From an uncultured Thermoleophilia bacterium (GTDB lineage Bacteria; Actinomycetota; Thermoleophilia; Solirubrobacterales; 70-9), in assembly GCA_963718595.1 (NCBI GenBank), contig OY970365.1, positions 965,994 through 1,029,993 on the forward strand: DNA of 64,000 nucleotides, in the 5' to 3' direction. Positions 1,433 to 54,800 of this stretch are shown here, piece after piece; the stretch's first letter is position 1; each line of letters opens with the position of its first letter. A program made the translations under genes and the position numbers. The notes under the pieces are model-generated. The model was not told where the DNA came from, ran no database searches, and saw only the letters and a program-made list of their open reading frames with translations.

Positions 1433-2119
1433 CTTCGGGGGGGTTGGTGAGAGGGGTTGGGGGTCTCTCGTGCTCGCTGGATTTTTCGCCCGGACTCTCG
1501 GATAGCTCTAAGACACGGACAAGCGAAAAATTAACGCCGCTGTGCGCGAGAGACCCCCAACCCCTCCCCTCAGAGCACCTCGAAGATTCCGCTAGCTCCC
1601 AGGGTTCGATCGTTTGCAGTTTGGATCGCTCAAGGGTTCGCTCGTTTGCTCTTGAGATCGCTCCAGGGTTCGCTCGTCTGCCGGGAGAGATCGAGCCCGC
1701 TCCCAGCTGGTGAGTTGCCGGTTAGTTCCGCATAGCGGTAACAACCGGCAACTCGTGAAGGAGGTTTTTGGATGAACCTTGGGGCGGATTGGGCCCTCGG
1801 CTTTCTCTTGAGAGGAGATTGCGTCCCTTGGTCGTCTATCTAGAGAGATTCCGTCCCTTGGCGTCTCTTTGCAGAGATGCCGGACCCTGGGCGTCCCTGT
1901 CTAGGGATCACGGACCCTGGTCCGTTCGTCAGCTTCGAGATGGTCCCGGTTCGCGAGGGACGGTGGGGGTGTCCTCCGTACGAGCGGCGTTAATTTTTCG
2001 CTCGTCCGTTCTCGAGAGCTTGCTGTTGTTCGGGGCGAAAAATCCAGCGAGGGAGGAGGACACCCCCACCGTCCCTCCCGGCCCGAGGGCCGGGGAGAAG
2101 TGCAGCGGCCCGAGGTTGG
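1433..2119 (+). repeat. ~690-bp non-coding composite palindromic repeat, copy 1
   Basis: Near-identical over long stretches to 42340-43055 in the same orientation. Internal parts: hairpin 1451-1566, three forward CCAGGGTTCG-type units (1599, 1631, 1663), central hairpin 1712-1754, four reverse units (ending 1831, 1861, 1890, 1920), hairpin 1955-2077. Confidence 0.9.
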
Positions 2120-4317: not shown

Positions 4318-5721
4318 CTAGACGCTGACGCCGGCGACTTGGAAGCGGCTCTGACCGTCGCCGTCGGGGCTGGCGGTCTCGGCGATCCGCGATTCCAGCG
4401 CCAGCTCCTTCTCGAAGTCCGCCGCCTCGCCGTGCTGGAAGGAGACGTCTTTGCCCTCGAGCAGCTCGATGAAGACCTCGACGAAGCGGGCGTCGAGCTG
4501 TTTGCCGGCAACCCGCCGCAGCTCGACGATCGCGTCGTAGCTCGACATCGGCGTCCGGTAGGAGTCGCGGGCAGTCATCACGTCGTAGGTGTCGGCGACG
4601 GAGATGATCCGCGAGAGCTCCGGAATGTCGTCCCCGGCGAGACCGCGCGGATAGCCTTTGCCGTCGATCCGCTCGTGGTGGGCGAGGATGATCTCCGCCA
4701 CCGGGCCATAGCCGTCGAGCGAGGAGACGACGCGGGCGCCCTGCTGGGGGTGGCGCTTGATCAGCATCCAGTCCTCGTCGGTGAGCGGCACGTTGGCCTT
4801 GAGGATGCGGTCGGGAAGGATGAACTTGCCGATGTCGTGCAGCAGCGCGGCAATGTGGACGAGCTCCTCCTCGCGGCGCGAGAAGCCGGCGCGCTGGGCG
4901 ATCGCTCTCGAATAACGGGCGACGGCGGCGGAGTGGCGCGCGGTCATCTGGTCGCGCAGATCGAGGGTGCGCAGCATCGCGCTCAACATCCCGACCTGGA
5001 AGCTGGCCAGCTGCTTGGAGCGCAGCTCCAGTTCCTCGGCCCGCTGCTGAGAGAGCAGCAGCTGACCGAGCAGGTACTGGAAGGTGATCAAGACGACACC
5101 GAAGAGGGCGATCGCCGCGATTCCGATCACGTGGTAGATGAAGGCGACGGCGATCGCCATCATCGCGCTGGCGAACTCGGAGGGCAGGACCGGCGGCAGC
5201 ACCTTCAGCTTCTCGCTGAAGCGGACCCGCTCCAGGTAGGCGCCATAGCCGGCGGTCATCGCGAAGTTGATCGCGAGCACGATCTGGAACAGCGCGAAGA
5301 CGAGCACGTAGAAGATCGGCTCGCCGGCGTCGATCCCGGCTCGCTCGGTCACCTCCATGAAGCCGAGGCCGCCGATCAGCGGGAAGGCGGCGTAGGTGAC
5401 CAGGTTGTTGAGCAGGTCGTGCGGGGCGTCGCGCCAGCGCAGCCACCCGATCGTGATCGTCATCACCCCCAGCAGCGCCGCCGGGGTGCCGCCGAGGAAG
5501 ACCATCGCCAGGACCAGGGCGAGGAAGCTGCCGGAGATCTTGATCTGGGCGTTGGTGGTAATCGCCGTCAGGTCACTGAAGGCGGCGAAGGCAAAGAGGA
5601 CCAGCAGCAGGCCGAAGTTCCAGTTGCCCTGCGGCGCCTCGACGATGGCGACGCCGACGACGACGACCAGCGCCACCGCCTGAAGGGCGATTACTCTCGG
5701 GGTGGGGCGATCGGCGGGCAT
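4318..5721 (-). CDS. membrane-anchored HD-GYP domain protein (probable c-di-GMP phosphodiesterase)
   Basis: 467 aa. About 7 hydrophobic segments at the N-terminus, then HSAAVARY...LLHDIGK...HHERIDGKGYP (HD and GYP signatures). Confidence 0.85.
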   Translation of the reverse strand: MPADRPTPRVIALQAVALVVVVGVAIVEAPQGNWNFGLLLVLFAFAAFSDLTAITTNAQIKISGSFLALVLAMVFLGGTPAALLGVMTITIGWLRWRDAPHDLLNNLVTYAAFPLIGGLGFMEVTERAGIDAGEPIFYVLVFALFQIVLAINFAMTAGYGAYLERVRFSEKLKVLPPVLPSEFASAMMAIAVAFIYHVIGIAAIALFGVVLITFQYLLGQLLLSQQRAEELELRSKQLASFQVGMLSAMLRTLDLRDQMTARHSAAVARYSRAIAQRAGFSRREEELVHIAALLHDIGKFILPDRILKANVPLTDEDWMLIKRHPQQGARVVSSLDGYGPVAEIILAHHERIDGKGYPRGLAGDDIPELSRIISVADTYDVMTARDSYRTPMSSYDAIVELRRVAGKQLDARFVEVFIELLEGKDVSFQHGEAADFEKELALESRIAETASPDGDGQSRFQVAGVSV

Positions 5722-13088: not shown

Positions 13089-13135
13089 CCGAGTTGCCGG
13101 TTATTTTCGGATAGCGAGAAGAACCGGCAACTCGG
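13089..13135. terminator. 14-bp-stem hairpin CCGAGTTGCCGGTT-N19-AACCGGCAACTCGG, a solo copy of the central hairpin of the 0.7-kb repeat
   Basis: Lies 4 nt after the stop of the last ABC gene. The same arms occur at 1712-1754 and 42618-42660. Confidence 0.6.
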
Positions 13136-19624: not shown

Positions 19625-19711
19625 GGAGGGGTGCCGGAGCGGTTGAACGGGGCAGTCTCGAAAACTGTTGGCGTCGCAAGGCGCTCGTGGGTTCGAATCC
19701 CACCCCCTCCG
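19625..19711 (+). tRNA. tRNA-Ser (anticodon CGA)
   Basis: Hand-folded cloverleaf. Acceptor GGAGGGG/CCCCTCC, anticodon stem gcagt/actgt with loop cuCGAaa, long variable arm, T-arm gtgggTTCGAAtcccac. No encoded CCA. Confidence 0.9.
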
Positions 19712-19726: not shown

Positions 19727-22510
19727 TCAGCGTTTCTTCGGGACCAGCTTCGCGGCGACCTGGCCGCGGCTGGTCTCGCCGCCGGGCACCTTGCCGACGA
19801 GAGCGACCACGGCCTTGATCTGGCCGAGCTTGGCGAGCTTGCCCAGGCCAGCCTTGGAAAGCCTGCCGGCGAGGCCCGCCGTCTTGCCGGGGGCGACCTC
19901 GAGGGTCGAGCCGCCCAGCTTCAGCTTCGCTTTGCCTTTGCCTTTCGGCTTCGGGAGGCTGGCGCTGACGGCGACGTCGACTGAGCAGGACTGGGCGCTG
20001 GCGGCCGGGCAGCTGAGCGCAGCGGCCTTGATCGTGAAGGCGCCGCTCTTGGCGACCTTGACGGTGCCGGCGTTGGCAAGCAGCTTCAGCGTCATCCGCA
20101 GCGACGGTGGCGGCGGTGGGGGCGGCGGCGAAGACGGGCTCGGGCACTGGAGGCGGATGTCGAGATTGGTGACCGGTGGCGGGATCGTCATCACCGCGGT
20201 CTCGACTTGGCCCTGGCCGGGCTGGCCGGGGGCATGGCAACCGGCCTTGACCACCTGGACCTTGTAGAAGCCGGCGATCACGTCCCAGCCAAAGTGCCCA
20301 CTGGCTTCGCTGCTGTCGGGGTTGCGCCGGTTCATCGGCGACATCACGGCGGATCCGTCGGGGACGACGGTGAAGGGACCGGCGCTGAGATCCGAGCGCA
20401 GCAGGGTCACGGTCGCGCCGGGCAGCGGGGCGCCGTCAACGGTGCGGACGAAGCCGCTGGGGTCGATGTAGATCGGGAAGATCGGTTCTTCGTCTTCTTC
20501 GGTTTCTTCGTCTTCTTCGGTTTCTTCTTCTTCCTGTTCTTCGTCTTCTTCTTCTTCTTCGTCTTCTTCTTCTTCGGGCGGGGTTTCTTCTTCTTCTTCG
20601 GGTTCTTCGTCTTCTTCCTGTTCTTCTTCTTCGTCTTCTTCTTCCTCGTCTTCTTCTTCTTCCTGTTCTTCCTCTTCTTTTTCTTTTTGCACCGGGTCGC
20701 GCGGCGGCGGAGCGAGGATCCGCATCCGCGCGGCGCCGTGGTTGGGGAACAGCGGAACCACCGAGAAGACGAAGATGCACTTACCCGGAGTGGCGCTGGC
20801 TTCGGGGGCGCCGTTGGGCGGGATCCGCAGGGTCTGGCCGTTGGCGAATTCGATCCGCGCTTCGGCTTCGGCGTTGCAGTTGGCCTGATGGCGGACCGCG
20901 AACGGTTCCTGCCAGTGCACTATCGGGACCCCTTCGCCAGTCGTTCCCTTGGCGCCGGCACCGGTGAATTTGGTCGTCGGGGGCGGTGGTTTTGGCAGCG
21001 GCAGGACGACGTCCTGGTTGGTCTTCTCGGTTTCGGCCTTGGTACGGCTGATCGTTTCGCGGGTTTTCGAGGCCGCGTTGGAGCCGGCCGGCGGGAAGGC
21101 GGTGACGCGATAGTCGCCGGCGACGGGGACCTGGAGTTTGTAGAAGCCGCTGCCGTCGGTCGTGGTCGCGCGGCAGGGGCTGCCTTTGAGCTTGCAGACC
21201 TGGACCGGGGCGCCTTTGGCCGCTTTCGCGGCTTCGGCTTTGCCTTCGTAGACGTGGCCGCTGATCGAGCCGGCGACGCTGCTGAGGGCAACGTCGGTTT
21301 CGCCGTTGGAAGAGGTCGCGGTCACCCTCACCACCAGCGCCTTGCCGAGGTCGGCCGCGGCGGCGGTGTAGGAGGTGCCGGTCGCACCGGGGATCGCGGT
21401 GCAGGTCTCGCCGTCTGGCTCGCAGCGCAGCCACTGGAAGTCGAAGGCGCCGGTGGCGTTGTCCCAGCTACCGGGGTTGGCCGTGAAGGCTTCGCCTTGG
21501 CGCGGGTTGCCGGCGCCGGCCGAGGCCATCGGCGCGCCGACGTTGATCGGTGGCGAGGCGGCTTTGCAGCCGTCGGGCAACCGGGTCGCTGAGCGTTCGG
21601 CGACCGGCCACGAGGTCGCGTCGTAGAAGCAGAGGTACTCGACCTCGGTCACCGGCAGCACCCAGTTGGTGAGAGCGGGTCGATCGAGCGAGACGCCCGA
21701 GTTATTGGAGCCCGAGAAGCCGTCGCTGTCGGTGACCACACTGGCGGGGTTGGCGGCGATGCTGGCGGGGTCGCGAAGAATCAGCAGGCCGGCGTTCGTG
21801 CCCGAAGAGTTGAGCGCCACCCAGGTGTCGTTCCAGTCGGTCTGGACCGCGAGGCTGGTGCCCAGCGTGTTGAGGCCACTGCTGTCCGCCTTGGGGAAGA
21901 CGACCTGGTTGTAGGTGCCGCCCGGCAGCCGCGGCACGTAGGCGCGCATCCCCTGCGCCAAGACGGCGGAGTGGGTCTGGTTCGCGGCGAAGGTCCAGCG
22001 GCGCTCGACCCGGACCGTATTGGCTGCCGCTCCGCCGTCGAAGAACGAGTAGCGGGTGCGTACCGGGACGGGAGGCGAGTCACCGGAGCACGCTTGCGGC
22101 GTGATCGAGTTGATCTCGACGCTGCGCTCTCCCCGTGGCCCCCAGGTCCCGCGACTGCCGGCAACCACCGGTCCGGGGCTCTGACCGTCGGCGTTGCCGT
22201 AAGACTGGCCCCAGAACTCGCTGGAGGGGTCCCCGCAGCCGCCGCCGCCCTGACTGGCGACGTTCGGGCCGAAGGCGAGGCTCGCTTCGCGCCGCCATTC
22301 GACCGTGTCCACCCGCTCGATGTTGGCTGCGGAGTCGCCGAAGTTCCATTTGTAGTTCGGCGTCGTGACCAGGTCGGGGCCGTCGTCGATCACGATCGCG
22401 GCCCCGGCACGGGGGGCGAAGGCGAGCGCGGCGAGGAGCGCGAGGGCGCCGATCAAGAGCCAGCCGCGGCATCCGCGCAATGAAATATCGGCGTGTAGCG
22501 GACGGGACAT
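19727..22510 (-). CDS. large secreted protein with CarboxypepD_reg-like beta-sandwich domains, a long poly-Glu/Asp tract, a poly-Pro linker and a Lys-rich C-terminus
   Basis: 927 aa. Signal-like N-terminus GWLLIGALALLAALAFAPRAGAA. SISGHVYEG...TTDGSGFYKLQVPVAGDYRVTAFP and GAPLPGATVTLL...GFYKVQVVKAGC resemble carboxypeptidase-regulatory domains. Also an acidic tract and PPPPPPPP. Confidence 0.8.
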   Translation of the reverse strand: MSRPLHADISLRGCRGWLLIGALALLAALAFAPRAGAAIVIDDGPDLVTTPNYKWNFGDSAANIERVDTVEWRREASLAFGPNVASQGGGGCGDPSSEFWGQSYGNADGQSPGPVVAGSRGTWGPRGERSVEINSITPQACSGDSPPVPVRTRYSFFDGGAAANTVRVERRWTFAANQTHSAVLAQGMRAYVPRLPGGTYNQVVFPKADSSGLNTLGTSLAVQTDWNDTWVALNSSGTNAGLLILRDPASIAANPASVVTDSDGFSGSNNSGVSLDRPALTNWVLPVTEVEYLCFYDATSWPVAERSATRLPDGCKAASPPINVGAPMASAGAGNPRQGEAFTANPGSWDNATGAFDFQWLRCEPDGETCTAIPGATGTSYTAAAADLGKALVVRVTATSSNGETDVALSSVAGSISGHVYEGKAEAAKAAKGAPVQVCKLKGSPCRATTTDGSGFYKLQVPVAGDYRVTAFPPAGSNAASKTRETISRTKAETEKTNQDVVLPLPKPPPPTTKFTGAGAKGTTGEGVPIVHWQEPFAVRHQANCNAEAEARIEFANGQTLRIPPNGAPEASATPGKCIFVFSVVPLFPNHGAARMRILAPPPRDPVQKEKEEEEQEEEEDEEEEDEEEEQEEDEEPEEEEETPPEEEEDEEEEEDEEQEEEETEEDEETEEDEEPIFPIYIDPSGFVRTVDGAPLPGATVTLLRSDLSAGPFTVVPDGSAVMSPMNRRNPDSSEASGHFGWDVIAGFYKVQVVKAGCHAPGQPGQGQVETAVMTIPPPVTNLDIRLQCPSPSSPPPPPPPPSLRMTLKLLANAGTVKVAKSGAFTIKAAALSCPAASAQSCSVDVAVSASLPKPKGKGKAKLKLGGSTLEVAPGKTAGLAGRLSKAGLGKLAKLGQIKAVVALVGKVPGGETSRGQVAAKLVPKKR
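20485..20690 (-). repeat. low-complexity (GAA/GAG/GAC)n tract encoding ~70 consecutive Glu/Asp-dominated residues
   Basis: Plus strand reads ttcttcgtcttcttcggtttcttc... Translation: QKEKEEEEQEEEEDEEEEDEEEEQEEDEEPEEEEETPPEEEEDEEEEEDEEQEEEETEEDEETEEDEEP. Confidence 0.9.
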
Positions 22511-22690
22511 CGCGCGAACCTACCACCGGATCTCGACTCTGGCGATGAAACCCGCCGATCAGTTCGGGTGCAATCCGGCGAGCAGACCGAGATCGGGAGG
22601 TTTTTCGACTGCCGGCGATCCACGAGCTGCACGGCTGAGAGGGACGAGCTTCTGCTCGCTCTTGGTTCTCTAGGCTTTGTCCAGCACCCC

Positions 22691-22780
22691 GGAGAGGTGT
22701 CCGAGTGGCTTAAGGAGCGCGATTGGAAATCGCGTGGGCGGGGTTAACCCGCCTCGAGGGTTCGAATCCCTCCCTCTCCG
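22691..22780 (+). tRNA. tRNA-Ser (anticodon GGA)
   Basis: Hand-folded. Acceptor GGAGAGG/CCTCTCC, anticodon stem cgcga/tcgcg with loop ttGGAaa, long variable arm, T-arm gagggTTCGAAtccctc. Confidence 0.9.
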
Positions 22781-24722: not shown

Positions 24723-24798
24723 CTGACCAAGCAGGTCAAGGACGAGTGAGGGAGTGTGCTCCGCACATGACCGAGCGAGGACGCCGAGATGCGCCGGT
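24723..24798 (+). repeat. 76-bp intergenic repeat, copy 1
   Basis: ctgaccaagcaggtcaaggacgagtgagggagtgtgctccgcacatgaccgagcgaggacgccgagatgcgccggt. Differs from 28714-28789 at about 4 positions. Confidence 0.85.
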
Positions 24799-26323: not shown

Positions 26324-28696
26324 ATGATCGGGACCTATGCCTCGGCGGCGCTGATCTGTGGCGCCTCGCTGCTGGTCGGCCGCGCGCTGCTGACGCTGGC
26401 CGGCCGGCGTGCTTGGTCGTGGCTGGAGCCGGGAGTCGGGTTCGGCGCGATCATCACCGTCAGCGGCTTGCTGGCGCGGGCGCCCGGGCACGGCACCGGC
26501 GCCAGCCTCGGCCTCCTCGCGCTGGTCGCGGTCGCGGCGGCCATCGTCTTCCGCGAGCGCGGCTACGAGGTCGCGGGCGTGCTGCGGGCCGGCGCACCGG
26601 TTGCGATCGCGATCGCTCTCCTGCTGGCGATTCCGTTCGCGGTCAGCGGCCACTGGGGGCTGCTCGGCGTCGGCTTCAACAACGACCTCGGGCTCCACCT
26701 CGCCTGGGCGGAGTGGCTGCGCAGCGGCTTCGGCCCGACGCCGGAGCCGGGCTACCCGCTCGGTCCGCACGGGCTGGCGGTGGCGACCGCGGTGGTTCCG
26801 GGAATCAACCTCGCGCAGGCCTTCATCGGCGAGATCGTCGCGATCGGCGTCCTCACCGGGTTGACCGCGATCGGCGCCCTCGGCGAGATGCGACCGGCGC
26901 GGCGGGCTCTGGCGGCGGTGCTGGTGGCGGTGCCCTACCTGGCCGCCTCCTACTTCGCCCAGGCGGCCTTCAAGGAGACCGCCGAGGCGCTCTTCGTGCT
27001 CAGCACCGTCGTCTTCCTCCTGGCGCCGGGGTCGTTGCCGACGGGGTTCCGGCGGCGACTGCGCTTCGCGCTGCCGGTACTGGCGCTGCTCGGCGGCATC
27101 TTCTTCTCCTACAGCTTCGCCGGCGTCGCCTGGCCGGTCGCGATCGCCGCCCTCTGGAGCCTGACCCTGCCGGCGGTGCGACGGGCGCTGCGGCCGAAGG
27201 CGCTGCTGCGCTTCCTGCTGCGACCGCTGACGCTGCTGGCGCTGATCGTCCTGGCCGGGCTCGCGGTCCTGGCCCTGGTCGGCCCCTTCGGCTTCGCCGG
27301 CGCCTTCAACAAGGTCGCCGGCAGCAACACCTACGGCCCGGTCTCGCCGATCGAGACGCTCGGCGTCTGGTGGAGCTCCAACTATCGCCTCGACGCGGTC
27401 GGCAGCGCCATGCTGCCGGGCTTGGCCGGGGCGATCGCGGTGGCGGCGCTACTGGTCGGCGTTGCCTGGTGGGTGCAGCGGCGCGAAGTGACGGTCCCGA
27501 TCGCGCTCGGCGGCGCCGCCGTCCTCTACCTGGTTTCGCTGCCCTTCAGCGGCGACTACTCGCAGGCCAAGGCCCTGATGATCGCCGCCCCGCTGGCAAT
27601 GCTGGTCGCCGCCAAACCGCTGATCTGGGAGTTCCCCCGCCTCGCCCGCCGACGGGCCGATAACGGGCCTATATCTCCCGTTATCGGCCCGTCGGCGGGG
27701 GTTTTGCGGGTTGGGTGGGCGCTGCTTGGCATCGCCTTCGTCGGCGGATCGATCTATTCGAGCCTGCTGGTGCTGCGGGACGCGCCGGTGGCGCCGCCGG
27801 GGCACGGGTCGGAGCTGCAGGCGTTCCTGCCGATCGTGCGCGGCGAGCCGGTGCTCTACGCGGGTCAGGACCGCTACGCCGCCTACGAGCTGCTCGGCGC
27901 CGACACCCACGTGCCGCTGGTCGAGTTTCCCGACGAGGCGGTCTCGCCCAACCCGGAGAAGCCGTTCGACACCGGCGACGCCTACAGCCCGATCGACTTC
28001 GACTCGTTCTCGACCGGCACCCTCAACGCCTTCCCCTATGTGGTCACCAGCCGCGCCGCCTGGAACAGCGAGGCGCCGCCGAACTTCAAGCGCGTCGCCG
28101 CCACCCCCTCCTACGTCCTCTGGGAACGCGACGGCGACACCCCCGAGGACCGCCAGGTCCTGCTCGAGGGAACCGCCGCTGGCGCCTACGCCGGCTGCGA
28201 CTCGCCCGAGATCCGCATCCTGCTCGCCAACCCCGGGCACGCGACGCTCTTCCCCGACGCCGTGGTCGGCGGCAAAGCCGACTGGGACGCCGGCTCGATC
28301 CTCAGCCCCGGCAGCGAGACCTCGCAGACCCTGGACCTGCCCGCCGGGACCTGGAACCTCTCCCTCCAGTACTTCTCCCCCCTCGCCCTCACCCTCTCCG
28401 CCCCCGGCTTCCAAGAGCCCCTCCACGCCGCCCTCGACGGCCAACGCCCGAACACGATCAGCCTCGGCAACAACGGCCAGTTCTGGCCCGCGGGCCGCTA
28501 CGAGAGCGACGGCGGCAGCACCCGCTTCACGCTCTCAGTAGCCGACGCCACCACGATCCAAGACCTCACCGGCTACAGCGGCAAGGCCTACATCGGCGAA
28601 CTGGTCGCCGTCCCAGCCAAGCCTCACCGGACCGTGCCCCTATCCCAGGCCTGCAACTCCTGGATCGACTCTTACGAATCCGACGCGGCACCGTAG
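26324..28696 (+). CDS. large polytopic membrane protein with a C-terminal extracytoplasmic domain (GT-C-like glycosyltransferase candidate)
   Basis: Track ORF from TTG 26312; ATG 26324 is more likely. More than 12 hydrophobic helices in the first ~470 aa, then a ~300-aa soluble region. The family call is an inference from architecture only. Confidence 0.7.
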   Translation: MIGTYASAALICGASLLVGRALLTLAGRRAWSWLEPGVGFGAIITVSGLLARAPGHGTGASLGLLALVAVAAAIVFRERGYEVAGVLRAGAPVAIAIALLLAIPFAVSGHWGLLGVGFNNDLGLHLAWAEWLRSGFGPTPEPGYPLGPHGLAVATAVVPGINLAQAFIGEIVAIGVLTGLTAIGALGEMRPARRALAAVLVAVPYLAASYFAQAAFKETAEALFVLSTVVFLLAPGSLPTGFRRRLRFALPVLALLGGIFFSYSFAGVAWPVAIAALWSLTLPAVRRALRPKALLRFLLRPLTLLALIVLAGLAVLALVGPFGFAGAFNKVAGSNTYGPVSPIETLGVWWSSNYRLDAVGSAMLPGLAGAIAVAALLVGVAWWVQRREVTVPIALGGAAVLYLVSLPFSGDYSQAKALMIAAPLAMLVAAKPLIWEFPRLARRRADNGPISPVIGPSAGVLRVGWALLGIAFVGGSIYSSLLVLRDAPVAPPGHGSELQAFLPIVRGEPVLYAGQDRYAAYELLGADTHVPLVEFPDEAVSPNPEKPFDTGDAYSPIDFDSFSTGTLNAFPYVVTSRAAWNSEAPPNFKRVAATPSYVLWERDGDTPEDRQVLLEGTAAGAYAGCDSPEIRILLANPGHATLFPDAVVGGKADWDAGSILSPGSETSQTLDLPAGTWNLSLQYFSPLALTLSAPGFQEPLHAALDGQRPNTISLGNNGQFWPAGRYESDGGSTRFTLSVADATTIQDLTGYSGKAYIGELVAVPAKPHRTVPLSQACNSWIDSYESDAAP
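27649..27695. repeat. 47-nt palindromic element (subtype I) inside the membrane-protein CDS
   Basis: ccgacgggccgataacggg-cctatatct-cccgttatcggcccgtcgg: perfect 19-bp arms with an AT-rich loop. Translated in frame as RRADNGPISPVIGPS. Confidence 0.85.
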
Positions 28697-28713: not shown

Positions 28714-28789
28714 CTGACCAAGCAGGTCAAGGACGACCGAGGGAGTGTGCTCCGCACATGACCGAGGGAGGACGCCGAGATGCGCCGGT
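28714..28789 (+). repeat. 76-bp intergenic repeat, copy 2
   Basis: ctgaccaagcaggtcaaggacgaccgagggagtgtgctccgcacatgaccgagggaggacgccgagatgcgccggt. Its last base is the first base of the desaturase stop codon. Confidence 0.85.
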
Positions 28790-33242: not shown

Positions 33243-34283
33243 CTAGTGCTCGAGCAGGTCCCGCTGGCTGAGCACGTAGAGCAAACCGAGCGCCGGCAGC
33301 ACCAGCAGCGCCGCGATCACGAAGACAACGAAGACCACGTCGAGGGTCGAGTCGGGCGCCGCTGCCTGGTCGATCCGCAGGCTGGTCGGCAGCAGGTACG
33401 GAAACTGCGCCACCGCCCAGCCCCAAATCACCGCGACCACGGCCCCCGCCGCCAACGGCCGCAAAAACACCCCGCCGACGGGCCGATTTGTCGCCTCACC
33501 GTTGACTTTTCGGCCCATCGACGAGAGGAGGAGGGCGATGGCGCCGAGGCCGCAGATGGCGCTGAGGATGACGAGGGGCAGGGCTTGGTCGGTGAGGCGG
33601 TCGAAGAGGTAGCGGGCTTCGGCGTGGAGCTCGACCAGGCCGAAGGCGGCGGCGGCCCCGGCGACGGCGCCGGCACCCAGCGCCCGCCGCGCAAAGTAGC
33701 GCTCGAGGTCGGCCTCGCCGGCGCGGCGGGCGTCGCCGACCAGGAAGACCGCGGAGAGGTAGGCGCCGGTGGCGACGAACATCGCCCCGATCAACAGCGG
33801 CAGCGGCGCCAGCCAGCTCGAGAAGGCGTCGCCGGTGCCGTCTGCGGGGACGTTGCCGCTGGCGATCGCGCCGACCACGGTGCCCATGAAGAACGGGGTC
33901 AGGACCGAGGAGAGGGCGAAGAGGGCGCCGAAGCTGCGCTGGCCGGTCAGCGTCGCCACCGTTTTGCGGAAGGCGAAGCCGGCGCCGCGCAGGACGATCC
34001 CCAGCGCCGCCAGCGCGATCGGCACGTAGAGGATGCTGAAGATGGCGCTGAAGGCGGGCGGGAAGGCGGTCCAGAGAACGACGAGGATGAAGATCAACCA
34101 GACGTGGTTGGCCTCCCAGACGGGGGTCAGCGAGCGCTGGATCAGCGCCCGCGGTTTCGCCCCCCTCTCGTCGCCGCCGGCGATGAGATCCCAGAAGCCG
34201 CCGCCGAAGTCGGCGCCGCCGAAGAGCGCGTAGAAGGTCGCCCCAACCCAGAGGATCGCCGCGGCGGCGTCGGCCTTGCTCAC
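33243..34283 (-). CDS. cydB: cytochrome bd ubiquinol oxidase subunit II
   Basis: Last 346 codons of track ORF 33243..36740, from GTG (cac 34281-34283) overlapping the cydA stop (GTGA). ILWVGATFYALFGGADFGGGFWDL... is typical of CydB. Confidence 0.9.
   Translation of the reverse strand: MSKADAAAAILWVGATFYALFGGADFGGGFWDLIAGGDERGAKPRALIQRSLTPVWEANHVWLIFILVVLWTAFPPAFSAIFSILYVPIALAALGIVLRGAGFAFRKTVATLTGQRSFGALFALSSVLTPFFMGTVVGAIASGNVPADGTGDAFSSWLAPLPLLIGAMFVATGAYLSAVFLVGDARRAGEADLERYFARRALGAGAVAGAAAAFGLVELHAEARYLFDRLTDQALPLVILSAICGLGAIALLLSSMGRKVNGEATNRPVGGVFLRPLAAGAVVAVIWGWAVAQFPYLLPTSLRIDQAAAPDSTLDVVFVVFVIAALLVLPALGLLYVLSQRDLLEH
33475..33520. repeat. palindromic element (subtype II) inside cydB
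   Basis: ccgacgggccgatttgtcgcctcaccgttgacttttcggcccatcg. Translated on the minus strand as SMGRKVNGEATNRPVG. Confidence 0.8.
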
Positions 34284-42306: not shown

Positions 42307-42339
42307 GGGGGCGGTTATACCGGGGCGGGGGCGGCTTTG

Positions 42340-43055
42340 TTCGAGGGGGTTTGGTGAGAGGGGTTGGGGGTCTCTCGTGCTCGCTGGATTTTTCGCCCGG
42401 ACTCCCGGATAGCTCTCAAGAGCGGACAAGCGAAAAATTAACGCCGCTGTGCGCGAGAGACCCCCAACCCCTCCCCTCAGACCTCCCGAAGAGATCCGCT
42501 AGCTCCCAGGGTTCGCTCGTTTGCAGTTTGGATCGCTCCAGGGTTCGGTCCTCTGCACTTTTGGCTGGCTCCAGGGTTCGATCGTCTGCCGGGAGAGATC
42601 GAGCCGCTTCAGCTCGTGAGTTGCCGGTTAGTTCCGCATAGCGAGAACAACCGGCAACTCGTGAAGGAGGTTTTGGATGAGCCTTGGGCGGATTGGGCTC
42701 TCGGCCTTCCTCTTGAGAGAGAGATTGCGTCCCTTGTCGTCTATCTAGAGAGATTCCGTCCCTTGTCATCTCTTTGCAGAGATGCCGGACCCTGGTCGTC
42801 CCTCTCTAGGGATCCCGAACCCTGGGCGTCCCTGTCTAGAGATGTCGAACCTCGTTCGTCAGCTTCGAGATGGTCCCGGTTCGCGAGGGACGGTGGGGGT
42901 GTCCTCCGTACGAGCGGCGTCCTCATTTTTGCGCTGCAGCGGTATCTCGGACGGTGGGAGCACTCCCCAGCAAAAATCCCAGCGAAGGTAGGAGGACACC
43001 CCCACCGTCCCTCCCGGCCCGAGGGCCGGGGAGGAGCGCAGCGGCCCGAGGTTGG
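42340..43055 (+). repeat. ~715-bp non-coding composite palindromic repeat, copy 2
   Basis: Same order of modules as 1433-2119: hairpin 42358-42473, forward units at 42506/42538/42571, central hairpin 42618-42660, five reverse units (ending 42736, 42765, 42795, 42825, about 42853), hairpin 42885-43013. Confidence 0.9.
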
Positions 43056-43062
43056 CGAGACC

Positions 43063-43932
43063 CTAGCTCTCTTTGCCCCGCTGGCGCAAAAACCGCTGGA
43101 ACTCACGAGCGATCGTGTCGGCGGAGGGCAGATCCTCGCCCTCAGCGGTCAGGAGGTCGACCTGTTCGGCCTCGATCCGCGCGACCAGCTCCTCGATCTC
43201 GGGATTGGCGGCGACGGCGCGGCCGATCTGCTCCTCGTAGTCGAGCGTTTCCTCCTCCAGATCCGATGCCTCGATGGCGATGCCGGTCAGGCCCTCGAGC
43301 CGGCGCAGCAGCGCCAGCGCCGCCTTCGGGTTGGGGACCGCGGCGACGTAGTGGGGGACGGCTGCCCAGAGCGAGGCGGAGTCGATTCCGGCTTGGCGGC
43401 AGAGGTCGTGGACGACGCCGGTGATCCCGGTCGGGCCCTCGTAATTCGAGCGCTCGAGCTCGAGCTCGTCGACCAGGGACTGGCTCGAGGCGAGACCGCT
43501 GATCGGCACCGGCAGGGTGTGGGAGACCTCGGCGATCAACGCCCCGAGGGTGATCACCATCTCCACGTCGAGGGCATCGGCGGCGGTCGCGATCGTCTCC
43601 GAGAAGGTGCGCCAGCGCAGGTTCGGCTCGGTCCCGTCGAGCAGGATCAGGTCGCGGTCGGCGGTCGGGACGCGGGCGGCGAAGAGGTTGTTCTCCGGCC
43701 AATCGATGCGGCGGGTGTGGCCTTCCTCGAGGGTGATCGTCGGCCGCGTCGACTGGAAGTCGAAGAACTCCTCGGGGTCCACTTTCGCGATCAGCTCGGC
43801 GTCGAGCGAGGCCGCAATCGCCCCCAGCGCGGTCGAGGCCGAGGCCGCGGCGTCGTTCCAGCCGCGAAATGCACAGACCAGCACGGGGGAACGCAGGTGA
43901 GGTAGGTCGCCTTCCCACTTCAGTGATTCCAC
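43063..43932 (-). CDS. PAC2 (proteasome assembly chaperone 2-like) family protein
   Basis: In-frame GTG (cac 43930-43932). LVCAFRGWNDAAASASTA...LLDGTEPNLRW...NYEGPTGITGV is typical of actinobacterial PAC2 proteins. Confidence 0.8.
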   Translation of the reverse strand: MESLKWEGDLPHLRSPVLVCAFRGWNDAAASASTALGAIAASLDAELIAKVDPEEFFDFQSTRPTITLEEGHTRRIDWPENNLFAARVPTADRDLILLDGTEPNLRWRTFSETIATAADALDVEMVITLGALIAEVSHTLPVPISGLASSQSLVDELELERSNYEGPTGITGVVHDLCRQAGIDSASLWAAVPHYVAAVPNPKAALALLRRLEGLTGIAIEASDLEEETLDYEEQIGRAVAANPEIEELVARIEAEQVDLLTAEGEDLPSADTIAREFQRFLRQRGKES

Positions 43933-51837: not shown

Positions 51838-54800
51838 TTCCGCGCTACCGCGATCGTCAGTTCCATCCCGTCGATGCTGACCGTGGCGCCGTCGCCGGCG
51901 TCGAAGGAAACGGCGCTCGCCAGCACCTCCCCGACCAGGTAGGCCTGGTGCTCACGGGCGGCGTCCAGCAGCGCCTCCTCGCCGCCGAGCCCGAGCTCGA
52001 TCCGGTCGGTGATCTCCAACCCCGCCTCTTTACGCGCGATCTGGACCGCGTGGACGATCTCGCGGGCGAGCCCCTCGCGGCGCAGCTCCTCGTCGAGCTC
52101 GAGCGCCAGGGCAACCGCGTGCCCGGCCTCGGCCTCGACCTCGTAGCCCTCGAGCGGCTGCAGGGCGAGGCTGATGTCGTCGGGGGCAAGGGTGTGATCG
52201 GAGCCGTCGATCGAGATCCCGATCTCGCCGCCATCGGCAAGGACCGAAGCCACATGAGCGGCATCGAGCGCCGCCACCGCGGCGGCAACCTGCGGCATCG
52301 ACTTGCCGAAGCGCGGCCCGAGGGTGCGGTAGTTCGGCTTCGCCGTATAGCTCACCAGCTCGCCTTGATCACTGACGAAGTCGAGCTCTTTGACGTTGAG
52401 CTCCGCCAGGATGATCTCTGCCCGGGCCTCGATCGCGGTGCGCTCGCTCTCGTTGGCGACGATCACGGCGCGGCGCAGCGGCTGGCGCACCTTCGCCTTC
52501 GCCTGCGCACGGGCGGCGCGGCCGAGCTCGACCGTGAGCCGGACCGCCTCCATCCCGGCCTCCAGCTCGGGGTCGGCAAGGGCGGGGTCGACGACGGGGA
52601 AGTCGCGCAGGTGGACCGAGTCCTCGGCACCGCCGGAGCCGCCGGCGAGATTGAGATGGACCTCATCGGCGAGGAACGGCGTGAACGGGGCCAGCATCGC
52701 CACCGTCTCCAGCAGGCAGTGGCGCAGGGTCGCGAAGGCGGCCCGGTCGCCTTCCCAGAAGCGCCGCCGCGAGAGCCGCACGTACCAGTTGGAGAGCTCC
52801 TCGACGTACTCGGAGATCGCCTTGCCGGCGGTGGTGCAGTCGAAGTCGTCCATCCGCTCGCGCACGGTCGCGACCGTCGCCTGCAGCCGCGACAGCGCCC
52901 AGCGATCGAGGTCGTTCTCCGAATCGCGTGGTTCCTTACCGGCCTCAGGGGCCGAAAAGGAACCACGAGTGGGGAAGTCGTCGGGGCCGAGGCCCTCGGC
53001 GTTCGCGTAGAGGACCCAGAAGGAATAGGTGTTCCAGAGCGTCAGCATGAACTGGCGCACCGACTCGCCGACGGTGTCGACCGAGAAGCGGTAGCCGGCC
53101 CAGGGCTGCTGGGTCGCCAGGTAGTACCAGCGGAAGGCGTCGGCGCCGTGGGTCGCAAGCACGTCCCAGGGATCGACGACGTTGCCGCGGCTCTTCGACA
53201 TCTTCTGGCCCTCGGGGTCGAGGATCAGGCCGAGGCAGACGCAGTTGCGGAAGCTCGACTCGCCGAACAGCAGCGTCGACTCGGCCAGCAGCGTGTAGAA
53301 CCAGCCGCGGGTCTGGTCCTGGGCCTCGCAGATGTAGTCGGCGGGGAAGCGTTCGGCGAACAGCTCCTGGTTCTCGAACGGGTAGTGGAACTGGGCGAAC
53401 GGCATCGCGCCGCTGTCGTACCAGGTGTCGATCACCGAGTCGACGCGGTGCATCTCGCCGCCGCACTTGCCGCAGGGCCAGGTCACCTCGTCGATATAAG
53501 GACGGTGGAGGTCGTCGGGGGTGGCGGCGCCGGAGCGCTGGCCGAGCTCCTCGACCGAGCCGATGCACTCGACCTCGCCGCACTCGCGGTCGGCGCAGCG
53601 CCAGACCGGCAGCGGCGTCCCCCAGTAGCGGTCGCGCGAGAGCGCCCAGTCGACGTTGTTCTCCAGCCATTTGCCGAAGCGGCCGTGCTTGACGTGCTCG
53701 GGGTGCCAGCCGATCGTCTCGTTGTTGGCCAGCAGCTCCGCCTTCGCCTCGGAGGTGCGGACGTACCAGCTCGAGGTCGCGTAGTAGAGCAGCGGCGTGC
53801 CGCAGCGCCAGCAGTGCGGGTAGGAGTGCTCGTAGATCTGCTCGCGGAAGAGCAGGCCGCGGCGCTCGAGGTCGGCGATCAGCTCCCGCGTCAGCTCCGG
53901 ATCCTTGACGAAGCGGCCCTCGAAGCCGACGACGCGGCGGTCGAAGGTGCCGTCGGGAGCAACCGGGTTGTAGAGCGTCTCGCGCCGGGTCGGGTCGAAG
54001 ATTCCATTCGCCGCGGCCACCGCGTAGTCGTCCTCGCCGAAGGCGGGCGCGATGTGGACGAGCCCGGTGCCGTCCTCGGTAGTGACGAAGTCGCCAGCGA
54101 GAACGCTAAACACCGGCCGATGGGCCGATTTGTCAACCATGGGTTGACTTTTCGGCCCATCGGCAGCGGGGCCGCCGTCGCCGAGCTCGAAGACCGGGCC
54201 CTCGTAGCGGCGGCCGACCAAGTCGGCGCCGGGCAGGCGGTCGATCACCTCGGCTCCCTCCCCCAGCACCTTCTCGACCAGCGGCTCGGCCAGGACCAGG
54301 GTCTCGTCGCCGGACCGCACGCGCGCGTAGGTGACCTTGGGTGCGACCGCGACGGCGACGTTGCCGGGCAGGGTCCACGGGGTGGTCGTCCAGACCAGCA
54401 GCGACTCGCCCTCGGCGCCGAGCAGCGGGAAGCGCACATATATGGACGGGTCCTCGACGTCTTTGTAGCCCTGCGCGACCTCGTGCGAGGAGAGCGGCGT
54501 GCCGTCGCGCGGGCAGTAAGGCACGACCTTGTGGCCCTCGTAGAGGCGGCCGCCGTCGAAGAGCTTCTTCAGCGACCACCAGACCGACTCGATGTAGTCG
54601 TCCTCGAGCGTGACATAGGGGTGGTCGAGATCGATCCAGTAGCCGATCCGCTCGGTCAGCTTGTTCCAGTCCTCGACGTACTCGAAGACCGACTCGCGGC
54701 AGCGCTGGTTGAACTCGGCGATCCCGAACTCCTCGATCTCGTCCTTGGAGGAGATCCCCAGCTGTTTTTCGACCTCGAGCTCGACCGGCAGCCCGTGGCA

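Follow-up and report, generated by a model that had tools for sequence, protein, structure and literature searches.

The question raised by this locus is what kind of element is represented by a ~0.7-kb non-coding palindromic sequence that occurs twice in a 64,000-nucleotide stretch of DNA from an uncultured Thermoleophilia bacterium of the order Solirubrobacterales (contig OY970365.1, positions 965,994 to 1,029,993; this whole stretch is referred to as the window). A first-pass annotation had described the sequence, here called the composite, as a single giant palindromic unit, and had considered a foldback-type mobile element, a centromere- or origin-like protein-binding locus, or a long structured RNA. 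The analysis gave a different picture of the unit, which is a mosaic of three separately dispersed modules: a long hairpin (LH), tandem units of 30-32 nt, and a 43-nt central hairpin. Together these modules form a mosaic intergenic repeat family specific to Solirubrobacterales. The family is multi-copy and modular, polar and anchored at stop codons, conserved in structure, present at the same loci in relatives, and homogenised within genomes. The best reading of these properties, which we regard as about evenly balanced between right and wrong, is that the elements are 3′-end cassettes similar to BIME, REPIN and TRIT elements, which would act on transcript ends and would have been spread by a process at the DNA level.

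Two copies of the composite in the window

As the annotation had stated, the same sequence is present twice and in the same orientation. Alignment of positions 1400-2170 with 42310-43090 using MAFFT gave 89% column identity between copy 1 (~1437-2119) and copy 2 (~42344-43055), and the homology ended at ~1437/42344 and ~2119/43055, outside of which the flanks are unrelated. A segmental duplication that includes the flanking genes, which the annotation had named as a refuting outcome, is ruled out by these unrelated flanks. The same pair was found independently by a repeat finder (families D2, D4, D8, D9, D11 and D12), with one block of 68 nt in which the copies are 100% identical. The diagnostic sub-motifs of the composite had an expectation of 0.00 by chance in shuffled windows. 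The composite region is AT-enriched, with a G+C content of 58-62% (61-62% for the element itself) compared to 69% for the window. As a single strand, the unit folds into a giant foldback on both strands; compared to shuffled sequences, this folding gave z = -8.1 and -7.9 and was equalled by 0 of 20 shuffles.

Copy 1 makes up the entire intergenic region (1424-2152) from the TAG stop codon of an arginase-family gene on its left (1421-1423, + strand) to the stop codon (2153-2155) of the pterin-4a-carbinolamine dehydratase (PCD) gene on its right (2153-2428, - strand), and the two genes converge on it. Copy 2 extends over 42307-43062, from the probable start of a Ser/Thr kinase gene (~42306, - strand), the 5′ end of which adjoins one end of the composite (the A end), to the stop codon of a PAC2-family gene on its right (43063-43065, - strand). 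The genes that flank the composites are housekeeping genes with conserved synteny.

Anatomy of the composite

The internal order given by the annotation, namely a hairpin, three units, a central hairpin, four units, and a second hairpin with a reverse-complement interior, was confirmed in copy 1. Hairpin A (1446-1571) has 23-nt arms that are 96% complementary, hairpin B (1947-2085) has 31-nt arms that are 90% complementary (inverted repeat I2), and the interior of hairpin B is the reverse complement of that of hairpin A (inverted repeat I1, 96 nt, 72%). When matched to the LH covariance model, these correspond to an A-type long hairpin, A1 (1422-1595, + strand, sense to the arginase gene, 155 bits), and a B-type long hairpin, B1 (1932-2108, - strand, sense to the PCD gene, 125 bits). 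A1 consists of an outer stem (GAGGGGTTGGGGGTCTCTCGTGC / GCGCGAGAGACCCCCAACCCCTC), an inner stem (ATTTTTCGC / GCGAAAAAT) with a TTAAC bulge, and a variable apex, and the arginase stop codon finishes 1 nt within the start of the model. A1 is followed by three 32-nt A-side tandem units (1599-1694, + strand, starting at 1599, 1631 and 1663; families D3 and D4), each of which has the core GCTCCAGGGTTCG and then a small hairpin, and by the central hairpin C, GAGTTGCCGGTT-N19-AACCGGCAACTC (1712-1754; inverted repeat I4). The four ~30-nt B-side tandem units (1806-1925, - strand; families D1, D6 and D4) have, in the sense of the PCD gene, a CCARGGR core and then the mini-hairpin ATCTCT-N4-AGAGAY. A B-side leader of two to three tandem ~24-27-nt units with CCTCGGGCCG (2079-2140, - strand; D9 and D10) sits between the PCD stop codon and B1, and the same leader was found in L057 and L058, two of the related stretches from other genomes and metagenomes that are designated here by L numbers.

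Copy 2 is made of the A-type LH A2 (42329-42502, + strand, 160 bits), three ~32-33-nt A-side units (42506-42600, + strand; D8), the central hairpin C (42618-42660), five ~30-nt B-side units (42711-42860, - strand; alignment gap, D4), and the B-type LH B2 (42862-43044, - strand, sense to PAC2, 76 bits). It therefore has one more ~30-nt unit than copy 1, seen as a 25-column gap in copy 1, and the interior of its hairpin B has diverged. The inner stem of B2 is altered on both sides (ATTTTTGC / GCAAAAAT).

Downstream of C, copy 1 carries a Shine-Dalgarno-like AAGGAGGT (1758-1765), an ATG at 1772, and a 23-codon open reading frame (ORF) to a TAG at 1841-1843 (1758-1843, + strand); the counterpart in copy 2 is at 42664-42748. 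The complement of AAGGAGGT, ACCTCCTT, is identical to the 3′ end of 16S rRNA, and AAGGAGGT is thus a perfect 8-nt Shine-Dalgarno sequence. An independent gene with its own promoter, producing a long structured non-coding RNA, a small RNA or protein sponge, or a small protein through AAGGAGGT-N6-ATG and the 23 codons, could account for the very stable folding on both strands, for the CCARGG motifs that recur between the mini-hairpins, and for the preservation in both window copies of a perfect ribosome-binding site and ATG followed by 23 codons. We nevertheless consider such a gene very improbable. The length of the frame is kept between the copies through four single-base indels (-1, +1, +1, -1), but the peptide differs over the frame-shifted stretches (ADWALG vs RIGLSA), and neither AAGGAGGT-N6-ATG nor the 23-codon ORF was present in the composites of any other genome; on these two grounds the ORF was rejected as a gene. 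Module content also varies widely between orthologous loci, no promoter-like site or Rfam match was found in the composites, and because the two halves of the composite are mirror images, every motif in a single transcript would be sense in one half and antisense in the other. A protein-coding role was likewise rejected, as the ORFs over the unit are spurious frames typical of high-G+C DNA. The description of the unit as non-coding, with no transposase and no frame-conserved ORF, stands.

Searches for known relatives of the composite were negative. In the Rfam scan that the annotation had proposed, Rfam 15 at the gathering threshold matched only two tRNAs in the window and nothing in the composite, and permissive E-values added only sub-threshold matches to generic miRNA-precursor hairpin models, so that a known RNA family was rejected. 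The composite had no blastn match among 72,556 plasmid and 50,697 phage records, and viral contigs contained no exact motif matches; a plasmid, phage or viral origin was rejected on the basis of these searches.

The modules are dispersed independently

The statement that the sequence is present twice holds for the full unit in the window; it does not hold for the modules. Central hairpin C occurs a third time in the window, alone, at 13091-13133 (D9), 5 nt past the TGA of an ABC-transporter ATPase gene and 23 nt ahead of the start of an ATP-dependent DNA ligase gene, and all modules recur in other genomes. When one genome per GTDB species was searched, the central hairpin was found in 19 stretches, all of them from Solirubrobacterales or 'Actinomycetes' metagenome-assembled genomes (MAGs), all solitary, with 0 composites; this distribution also identifies the lineage of the host. 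In Solirubrobacterales MAGs the dispersed C palindrome is commonly extended to GAGTTGCCGGTTTGTC...GACAAACCGGCAACTC.

The LH is dispersed as well, and BLAST found it singly, paired, or within composites. A metagenome scan returned 37 stretches that match GCGAAAAATTAACGCCGCT, a 19-mer of the LH interior. With the covariance model, ~50 separate sites of the LH were detected in 473 kb of sequence from Solirubrobacterales MAGs and from soil metagenomes, including L005, L011 and L013, which are from Solirubrobacterales MAGs; in the window it detected only the four expected sites (A1, B1, A2 and B2).

Composites or half-composites with the same module order but differing module counts were found in L020, L028, L033, L034, L045, L057, L058, L060 and L062. 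The composite in L028 consists of an A-type LH, one unit, C, a second hairpin termed X, two units, and a B-type LH; L020 has this architecture in reverse orientation with X at the centre, and a composite with its modules in the common order is also present in L034. Half-composites are found in L045 (C, three units, B-type LH) and L033 (A-type LH and X). Hairpin X, GAGGTCGCA...CCCCGTATAGCGGGG...TGCGACCTC, is designed like C, with arms that are different but complementary. Across composites the number of tandem units ranges from 0 to 5, the central hairpin is exchangeable (C or X), and the mini-palindromes within the units change on both sides, for example from ATCTCT/AGAGAT to ATCCCT/AGGGAC. 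At least nine contigs (L020, L028, L029, L042, L056, L059, L061, L062 and L064) end within an LH or composite, as is typical of multi-copy repeats, which cannot be bridged in short-read assembly. The single giant palindromic unit of the first-pass annotation thus gives way to a mosaic.

Structure and covariation of the long hairpin

In an alignment of 27 copies, the LH is ~125-165 nt long with a variable apex of ~33 nt. The sequence of the outer stem, which is G-rich on one side and C-rich on the other, varies among copies, and the inner stem is nearly invariant: GC-GG-ATTTTTCGC / GCGAAAAAT-(TAACG)-CC-GC. The 5′ half of the inner stem was not part of the search pattern, yet it is conserved. 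The individual LH arms are ~21-25 nt long and each is a small palindrome, such as GAGAG...CTCTC.

The covariation analysis suggested by the annotation showed that the LH is conserved as a structure. In the 40 best copies, 96.1% of cells were paired and two-sided changes were found in 13 of the 25 pairs. There were 114 compensated cells, compared to 37 ± 6 in shuffled alignments and at most 16 when the partners were slid by 1-3 columns; the alignment was fitted to the covariance model, which favours structure, but the effect is nonetheless large and visible by eye. Compensated inner stems are seen in L059 (GAAATTCGCC / GGCGAATTTC) and in the window B2 described above. In terms of strand, 29 of 42 LH copies were more stable when folded as the gene-sense strand than as the complement, and G-U pairs numbered 255 compared to 152 (Wilcoxon p = 0.007), a bias that hints, modestly, at RNA-level selection.

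Two orthologous copies show large changes. At positions 10880-10935 of L060, the B-type LH has collapsed to a short hairpin of which only a stem is left (GGGAGG-TGGGGCA-CCCTCCC), and at 10930-11020 of L058 the AT-rich inner stem of a B-type LH has been swapped for a G+C-rich one. Together with a subtype in which the interior appears flipped (A′, described below), these show that the long hairpins are structurally unstable.

Polarity relative to genes and the half-unit architecture

For a census of polarity, each LH was oriented by its conserved interior and genes were called by a codon-position G+C test. On the 5′ side of the LH, 35 genes within 150 nt were reading into the LH and 2 away from it, and among the 35 the call at window A2 is known to be an antisense miscall; on the 3′ side, 4 genes were reading into the LH and 13 away. 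The offset of the stop codon from the start of the model is nearly fixed, at ~-1 for A-type copies and ~-17 for more distant copies, and A-type LHs come 0-8 nt after TAG or TGA stop codons. In about a dozen cases the next ORF begins no more than 12 nt (0-12) from the 3′ end of the LH. Solitary LHs also occur between tandem genes and are always sense-oriented. In the more distant copies, GTAG or GTAA is found 8-12 nt before the stem, with the complement after the stem, and it also serves as the stop codon of the upstream ORF, so that it may be a tag or simply a stop codon.

The order of modules is the same when read from either flanking gene: stop codon, (short leader), LH, CTCGAAG linker, n units, and central hairpin, where each unit of the half-unit has a CCARGG(R) core and then a mini-hairpin such as ATCTCT-N4-AGAGAT. 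The basic cassette is therefore a polar half-unit that starts at the stop codon of a gene and ends in the 43-nt terminal hairpin, and the giant palindrome arises because two such half-units meet at a common terminal hairpin between convergent genes. As the attachment of half-units to convergent stop codons explains the symmetry, the centromere- or origin-like role that had been considered for the locus is not needed.

A related possibility, which we find quite unlikely, is that the units and the AT-rich inner stems of the LHs form a DNA-level array that binds a nucleoid-associated protein, or gyrase, or a protein of the partition/centromere type; such binding could for example relieve the positive supercoiling that arises where genes converge, a role proposed for BIME-2 with gyrase. 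The regular phasing of the units at 30-32 bp (approximately three helical turns), their symmetry about the central palindrome, the position of composites between convergent genes, and the AT enrichment of the region would all be expected of such an array, and tolerance of the flipped A′ interior fits recognition of double-stranded DNA. However, the number of units is free to vary from 0 to 5 between orthologous composites, the two-sided changes of the mini-palindromes keep pairing and not a fixed half-site, and the outer stems of the LH covary instead of keeping their sequence. Binding of this kind also leaves the strict stop-codon polarity unexplained, and solitary LHs are found in tandem gene pairs, with only 10 nt between them and the following ORF.

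Evolution at the two window loci

At the PAC2 locus, four of four relatives (PAC2 94-98% identical in amino acid sequence) have a composite straight after the PAC2 stop codon, with the B-type LH first. In L057 this composite lacks a central hairpin and contains one or two units, in L058 it has three units, X, and a B-type LH with a G+C-rich inner stem, and in L059 the contig terminates within the element. In all contigs that pass the element (L057, L058 and L060), the next gene beyond it encodes a UvrD/PDDEXK helicase and is convergent. In the window, the far side of copy 2 has the 5′ end of the kinase gene and then a transketolase gene, and synteny breaks exactly at the A end (42307-42345), which is suggestive of a rearrangement that had the repeat as its breakpoint. 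The repeats of this family break metagenome assemblies, in at least nine related contigs, and coincide with a synteny breakpoint.

At the arginase locus, three relatives (81-87% protein identity) have an A-type LH directly after the TAG stop codon; the LH and the following modules are visible, and the contigs break within the element. The gap between the arginase and PCD genes is 431 bp in one further relative. The search of relatives for empty sites and target duplications, which had also been suggested, yielded one empty site. In L063, from the more distant genome ERZ25039516 (the same genome as L060), the arginase is 72% identical and there is no element. The arginase and PCD genes converge there so closely that their stop codons share the palindromic CTAG at 4876-4879, with TAG on each strand and no intergenic DNA. 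Composites have therefore been gained over evolutionary time. The filled site in the window reads GGGCTAG[element]CTACCTCA, with CTAG on the left and CTAC on the right. These ends are possibly the result of a CTAG or TA duplication, which a single diverged locus cannot prove, so that the outcome for target duplications is one suggestive CTAG/CTAC pair. The outermost ends of the composite do not form an inverted repeat. Relatives have the element at both loci, and a recent transposition of either copy is not supported; the foldback-type mobile element proposed at first is borne out in the foldback shape of the repeat and not in any recent hop.

The copies within a genome resemble each other more than they resemble their orthologs. 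A-type LHs at two loci of one genome were 0.92-0.94 identical (the window, MAG GCA_036265715.1, and JGI sample 3300085758, in which both contigs are assumed to be from one organism), compared to 0.69-0.80 for the same locus between genomes, which indicates concerted evolution, whether by conversion, turnover, or co-evolution with a factor. Each genome also has its own variants: the window has the standard interior and C, MAG GCA_036265715.1 has A′ and X, and JGI 3300085758 has the A′ interior.

These results bear on a further explanation, according to which the family is nothing but selfish, non-autonomous mobile DNA. In that case the LH would resemble a REPIN or a MITE (miniature inverted-repeat transposable element), mobilised as single-stranded DNA by an HUH/RAYT-type or TA/CTAG-targeting transposase encoded elsewhere, and the composite would be a nested or foldback assembly with no function in mRNA. 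The placement at stop codons would follow from target choice and survivorship, because TA and CTAG targets are scarce in DNA of 69% G+C and concentrated at stop codons. We consider this explanation possible but doubtful. The empty site with stop codons overlapping in CTAG, compared to the filled site ...CTAG[element]CTAC..., is in agreement with it, as are the GTAG/GTAA sequences 8-12 nt before the stem of the distant LHs with the complement after it, which resemble GTAG-tagged REPs (PMC3733652), and the fact that every LH arm is a small palindrome, as in REP doublets. The multi-copy nature of the family, the many contigs of relatives that break inside the element, the homogeneity of copies within a genome, and the synteny break exactly at the end of one element are also expected of mobile DNA.

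In contrast, no transposase was found in or beside any LH or composite copy, and a crude regular-expression scan of 496 kb for HUH...YxxNP had no match. A REPtron, in which a RAYT gene would lie between inverted LHs, was rejected for L041 and L013, in which the ORFs between the inverted LH pairs are TruA-like and HAD-like. The ends of the composite are not mutual inverted repeats and no clean target-site duplication was found, and the occupation of the window loci in several species gives no sign of recent movement. The stems vary among copies, although a terminal repeat bound by a transposase would be expected to be constant, and the 35:2 gene polarity exceeds what replication-strand bias alone would give. 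The binding array and the independent RNA or peptide gene are both less likely than selfish DNA. The selfish explanation and a function at transcript 3′ ends do not exclude each other, as in REP/RAYT biology.

Proposed action at transcript 3′ ends

According to the 3′-end reading, the cassettes would be transcribed as the 3′ ends of the flanking mRNAs, where the stable LH and the hairpin array could stop or attenuate RNA polymerase and could also block 3′-to-5′ exonucleolytic decay. Such a barrier may insulate convergent or tandem neighbour genes from each other. Spread and homogenisation would occur at the DNA level, either by gene conversion between copies or through a hairpin-recognising transposase. 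High-G+C Actinomycetota are largely without classical U-tract terminators, and the family is a testable candidate for transcript 3′-end formation in a group of soil bacteria that is uncultured and abundant.

Several observations weigh against this reading. A scan for canonical intrinsic terminators (hairpin plus U-tract) found none for copy 1 and one for copy 2, which does not exceed the number in shuffled sequences, and a promoter scan of the composites found no promoter-like site above chance. The A end of copy 2 faces the start of the kinase gene, with no stop codon there, and the kinase promoter must consequently be in or just beside the composite; given the convergent helicase found at this position in relatives, this placement looks like the result of rearrangement. 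Solitary central hairpins adjoin gene starts as well as gene ends. The sense-strand bias in stability is modest and was measured on LH copies that are related and hence non-independent, and for B1 and B2, both B-type LHs of the window, the antisense strand gives the better fold. The conserved interior of the A′ subtype (L057, L058, L061, L062, L028 and L011) appears to be turned round with respect to both stems and gene, as an inversion between the LH arms would yield, and a reading of the interior as sequence-specific sense RNA is therefore not universal. In addition, two-sided changes in a DNA palindrome can come from hairpin-templated repair or conversion with no selection on RNA.

A more specific form of the proposal is that the inner stem and bulge of the LH (GCTGG-ATTTTTCGC ... 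GCGAAAAAT-TAAC-GCCGC) are the recognition site of a dedicated trans-acting factor of this uncultured Solirubrobacterales clade and that the cassettes are a new, actively maintained system that defines 3′ ends or insulates genes. This is unlikely in our judgement. If it were true, the cassettes would be installed precisely even between overlapping convergent stop codons and the factor would keep them uniform in each genome; the mechanism would be distinct from both REP/RAYT and intrinsic termination.

Other repeats in the window

A second palindrome family of ~57 nt, which is unrelated to the composite, has four copies in the window (27646-27702, 33472-33528, 54114-54170 and 57806-57862). It has the form CCGCCGACGGGCCGAT-[variable apex]-(T)TCGGCCCGTCGGCGG, with the apex types ...GGGCCTATATCTCC... 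and ...TTGTCAACCATGGGTTGAC.... A 76-nt repeat, CTGACCAAGCAGGTCAAGGACGA..GAGGGAGTGTGCTCCGCACATGACCGAG.GAGGACGCCGAGATGCGCCGGT, is present at 24723-24798 and 28714-28789 (96% identical). Both copies are in short intergenic regions, each with the end of a + strand ORF on one side and that of a - strand ORF on the other. It had no Rfam match at the gathering threshold; a further family of repeats at gene ends is one possibility for it, and a conserved RNA is another. At 20468-20713 (+ strand), TTC/GTC/TTC triplets form a long run, periodic at 9-15 nt, inside a large - strand ORF (~19727-22519), in which it would encode a low-complexity stretch rich in Glu and Asp; this ORF is flanked by tRNA genes at 19625-19711 and 22691-22780.

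Comparison with known repeat systems

Mosaic extragenic palindromes at gene ends are a well known kind of element, although no description of the present elements was found in the literature, including that on Solirubrobacter repeats. The first-pass annotation had set the unit apart from insertion sequences, REP/BIME elements, CRISPR arrays and RNA families. This is upheld for insertion sequences, CRISPR arrays and the families in Rfam; REP/BIME elements, however, are the closest analogy in organisation and placement. Both are multi-copy extragenic palindromes in mosaic clusters with alternating orientation and a variable number of tandem units, and the mosaic organisation of BIMEs was seen in the window, L020, L028, L034, L045, L057, L058 and L060. 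Both have lineage-specific sequences and are located at gene 3′ ends, between convergent genes and in operons, often a few nucleotides from the stop codon. The two differ in that the main palindrome is 125-165 nt long here, with a conserved AT-rich inner stem and bulge, compared to the 20-40 nt of REPs, a size matched only by the individual LH arms and the 43-nt central hairpin. The tandem units of the present family are also of a 30-32-nt core-plus-mini-hairpin type, its host is an uncultured clade of Actinomycetota, and no RAYT gene was seen in the crude motif scan of 496 kb.

REPINs were reportedly described by Bertels and Rainey in 2011 as REP doublets that form hairpins, together with a RAYT transposase, and association with a RAYT gene is their defining feature. 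The LH is similar to a REPIN in being a hairpin of at least ~100 nt made of two inverted arms, each a small palindrome, with a spacer between them, in forming a population of copies within a genome, and in having, outside the stem of its more distant copies, sequences that may be GTAG-like tags. In contrast to REPINs, where conservation is greatest in the arms, the LH is most conserved in its interior spacer. ERIC/IRU elements and the Correia MITEs of Neisseria have a constant sequence and terminal inverted repeats, with a TA duplication in the case of Correia. The likeness to these elements lies in imperfect palindromes of ~100-160 bp that are found in transcribed intergenic regions, are present or absent at orthologous sites, and can alter transcript stability. 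Unlike them, the elements described here have covarying stems and a polarity relative to genes, and no clean target duplication was found for them.

The roles reported for REP/BIME elements are those of terminator, mRNA stabiliser, and binding site for gyrase or IHF (bioRxiv 10.64898/2026.03.23.713779; PMC3733652). E. coli REP325 is a partly Rho-dependent terminator as well as an mRNA stabiliser, and REPs between convergent E. coli genes are correlated with higher expression of both genes (bioRxiv 10.64898/2026.03.23.713779). GTAG-tagged REPs often provide the TAG stop codon of the neighbouring ORF (PMC3733652). Within the actinobacteria, the TRIT hairpin of Mycobacterium has a very narrow distance to the stop codon and was proposed to be a terminator (Gardner et al. 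2011, PMC3152330), and it was reported to be restricted to that genus (PMC3152330). TRIT and the present family are both actinobacterial hairpins restricted to a genus or order and conserved in sequence and structure, with ~10^2 copies at gene termini, a narrow stop-codon distance, a palindromic form usable both ways, and no classical U-tract. There is no evident sequence relationship, and the likeness, which was compared by description, is one of placement and logic. TRIT also differs in consisting of just one short hairpin, which overlaps with the coding sequence at its end, with no tandem-unit array and no mosaic organisation.

In summary, the features that are new compared to these systems are the LH with its conserved AT-rich inner stem and bulge, the core-plus-mini-hairpin units, the strict anchoring at stop codons, and the host clade. 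If the elements have no function, the family would still represent a REPIN/BIME-like repeat population outside Proteobacteria.

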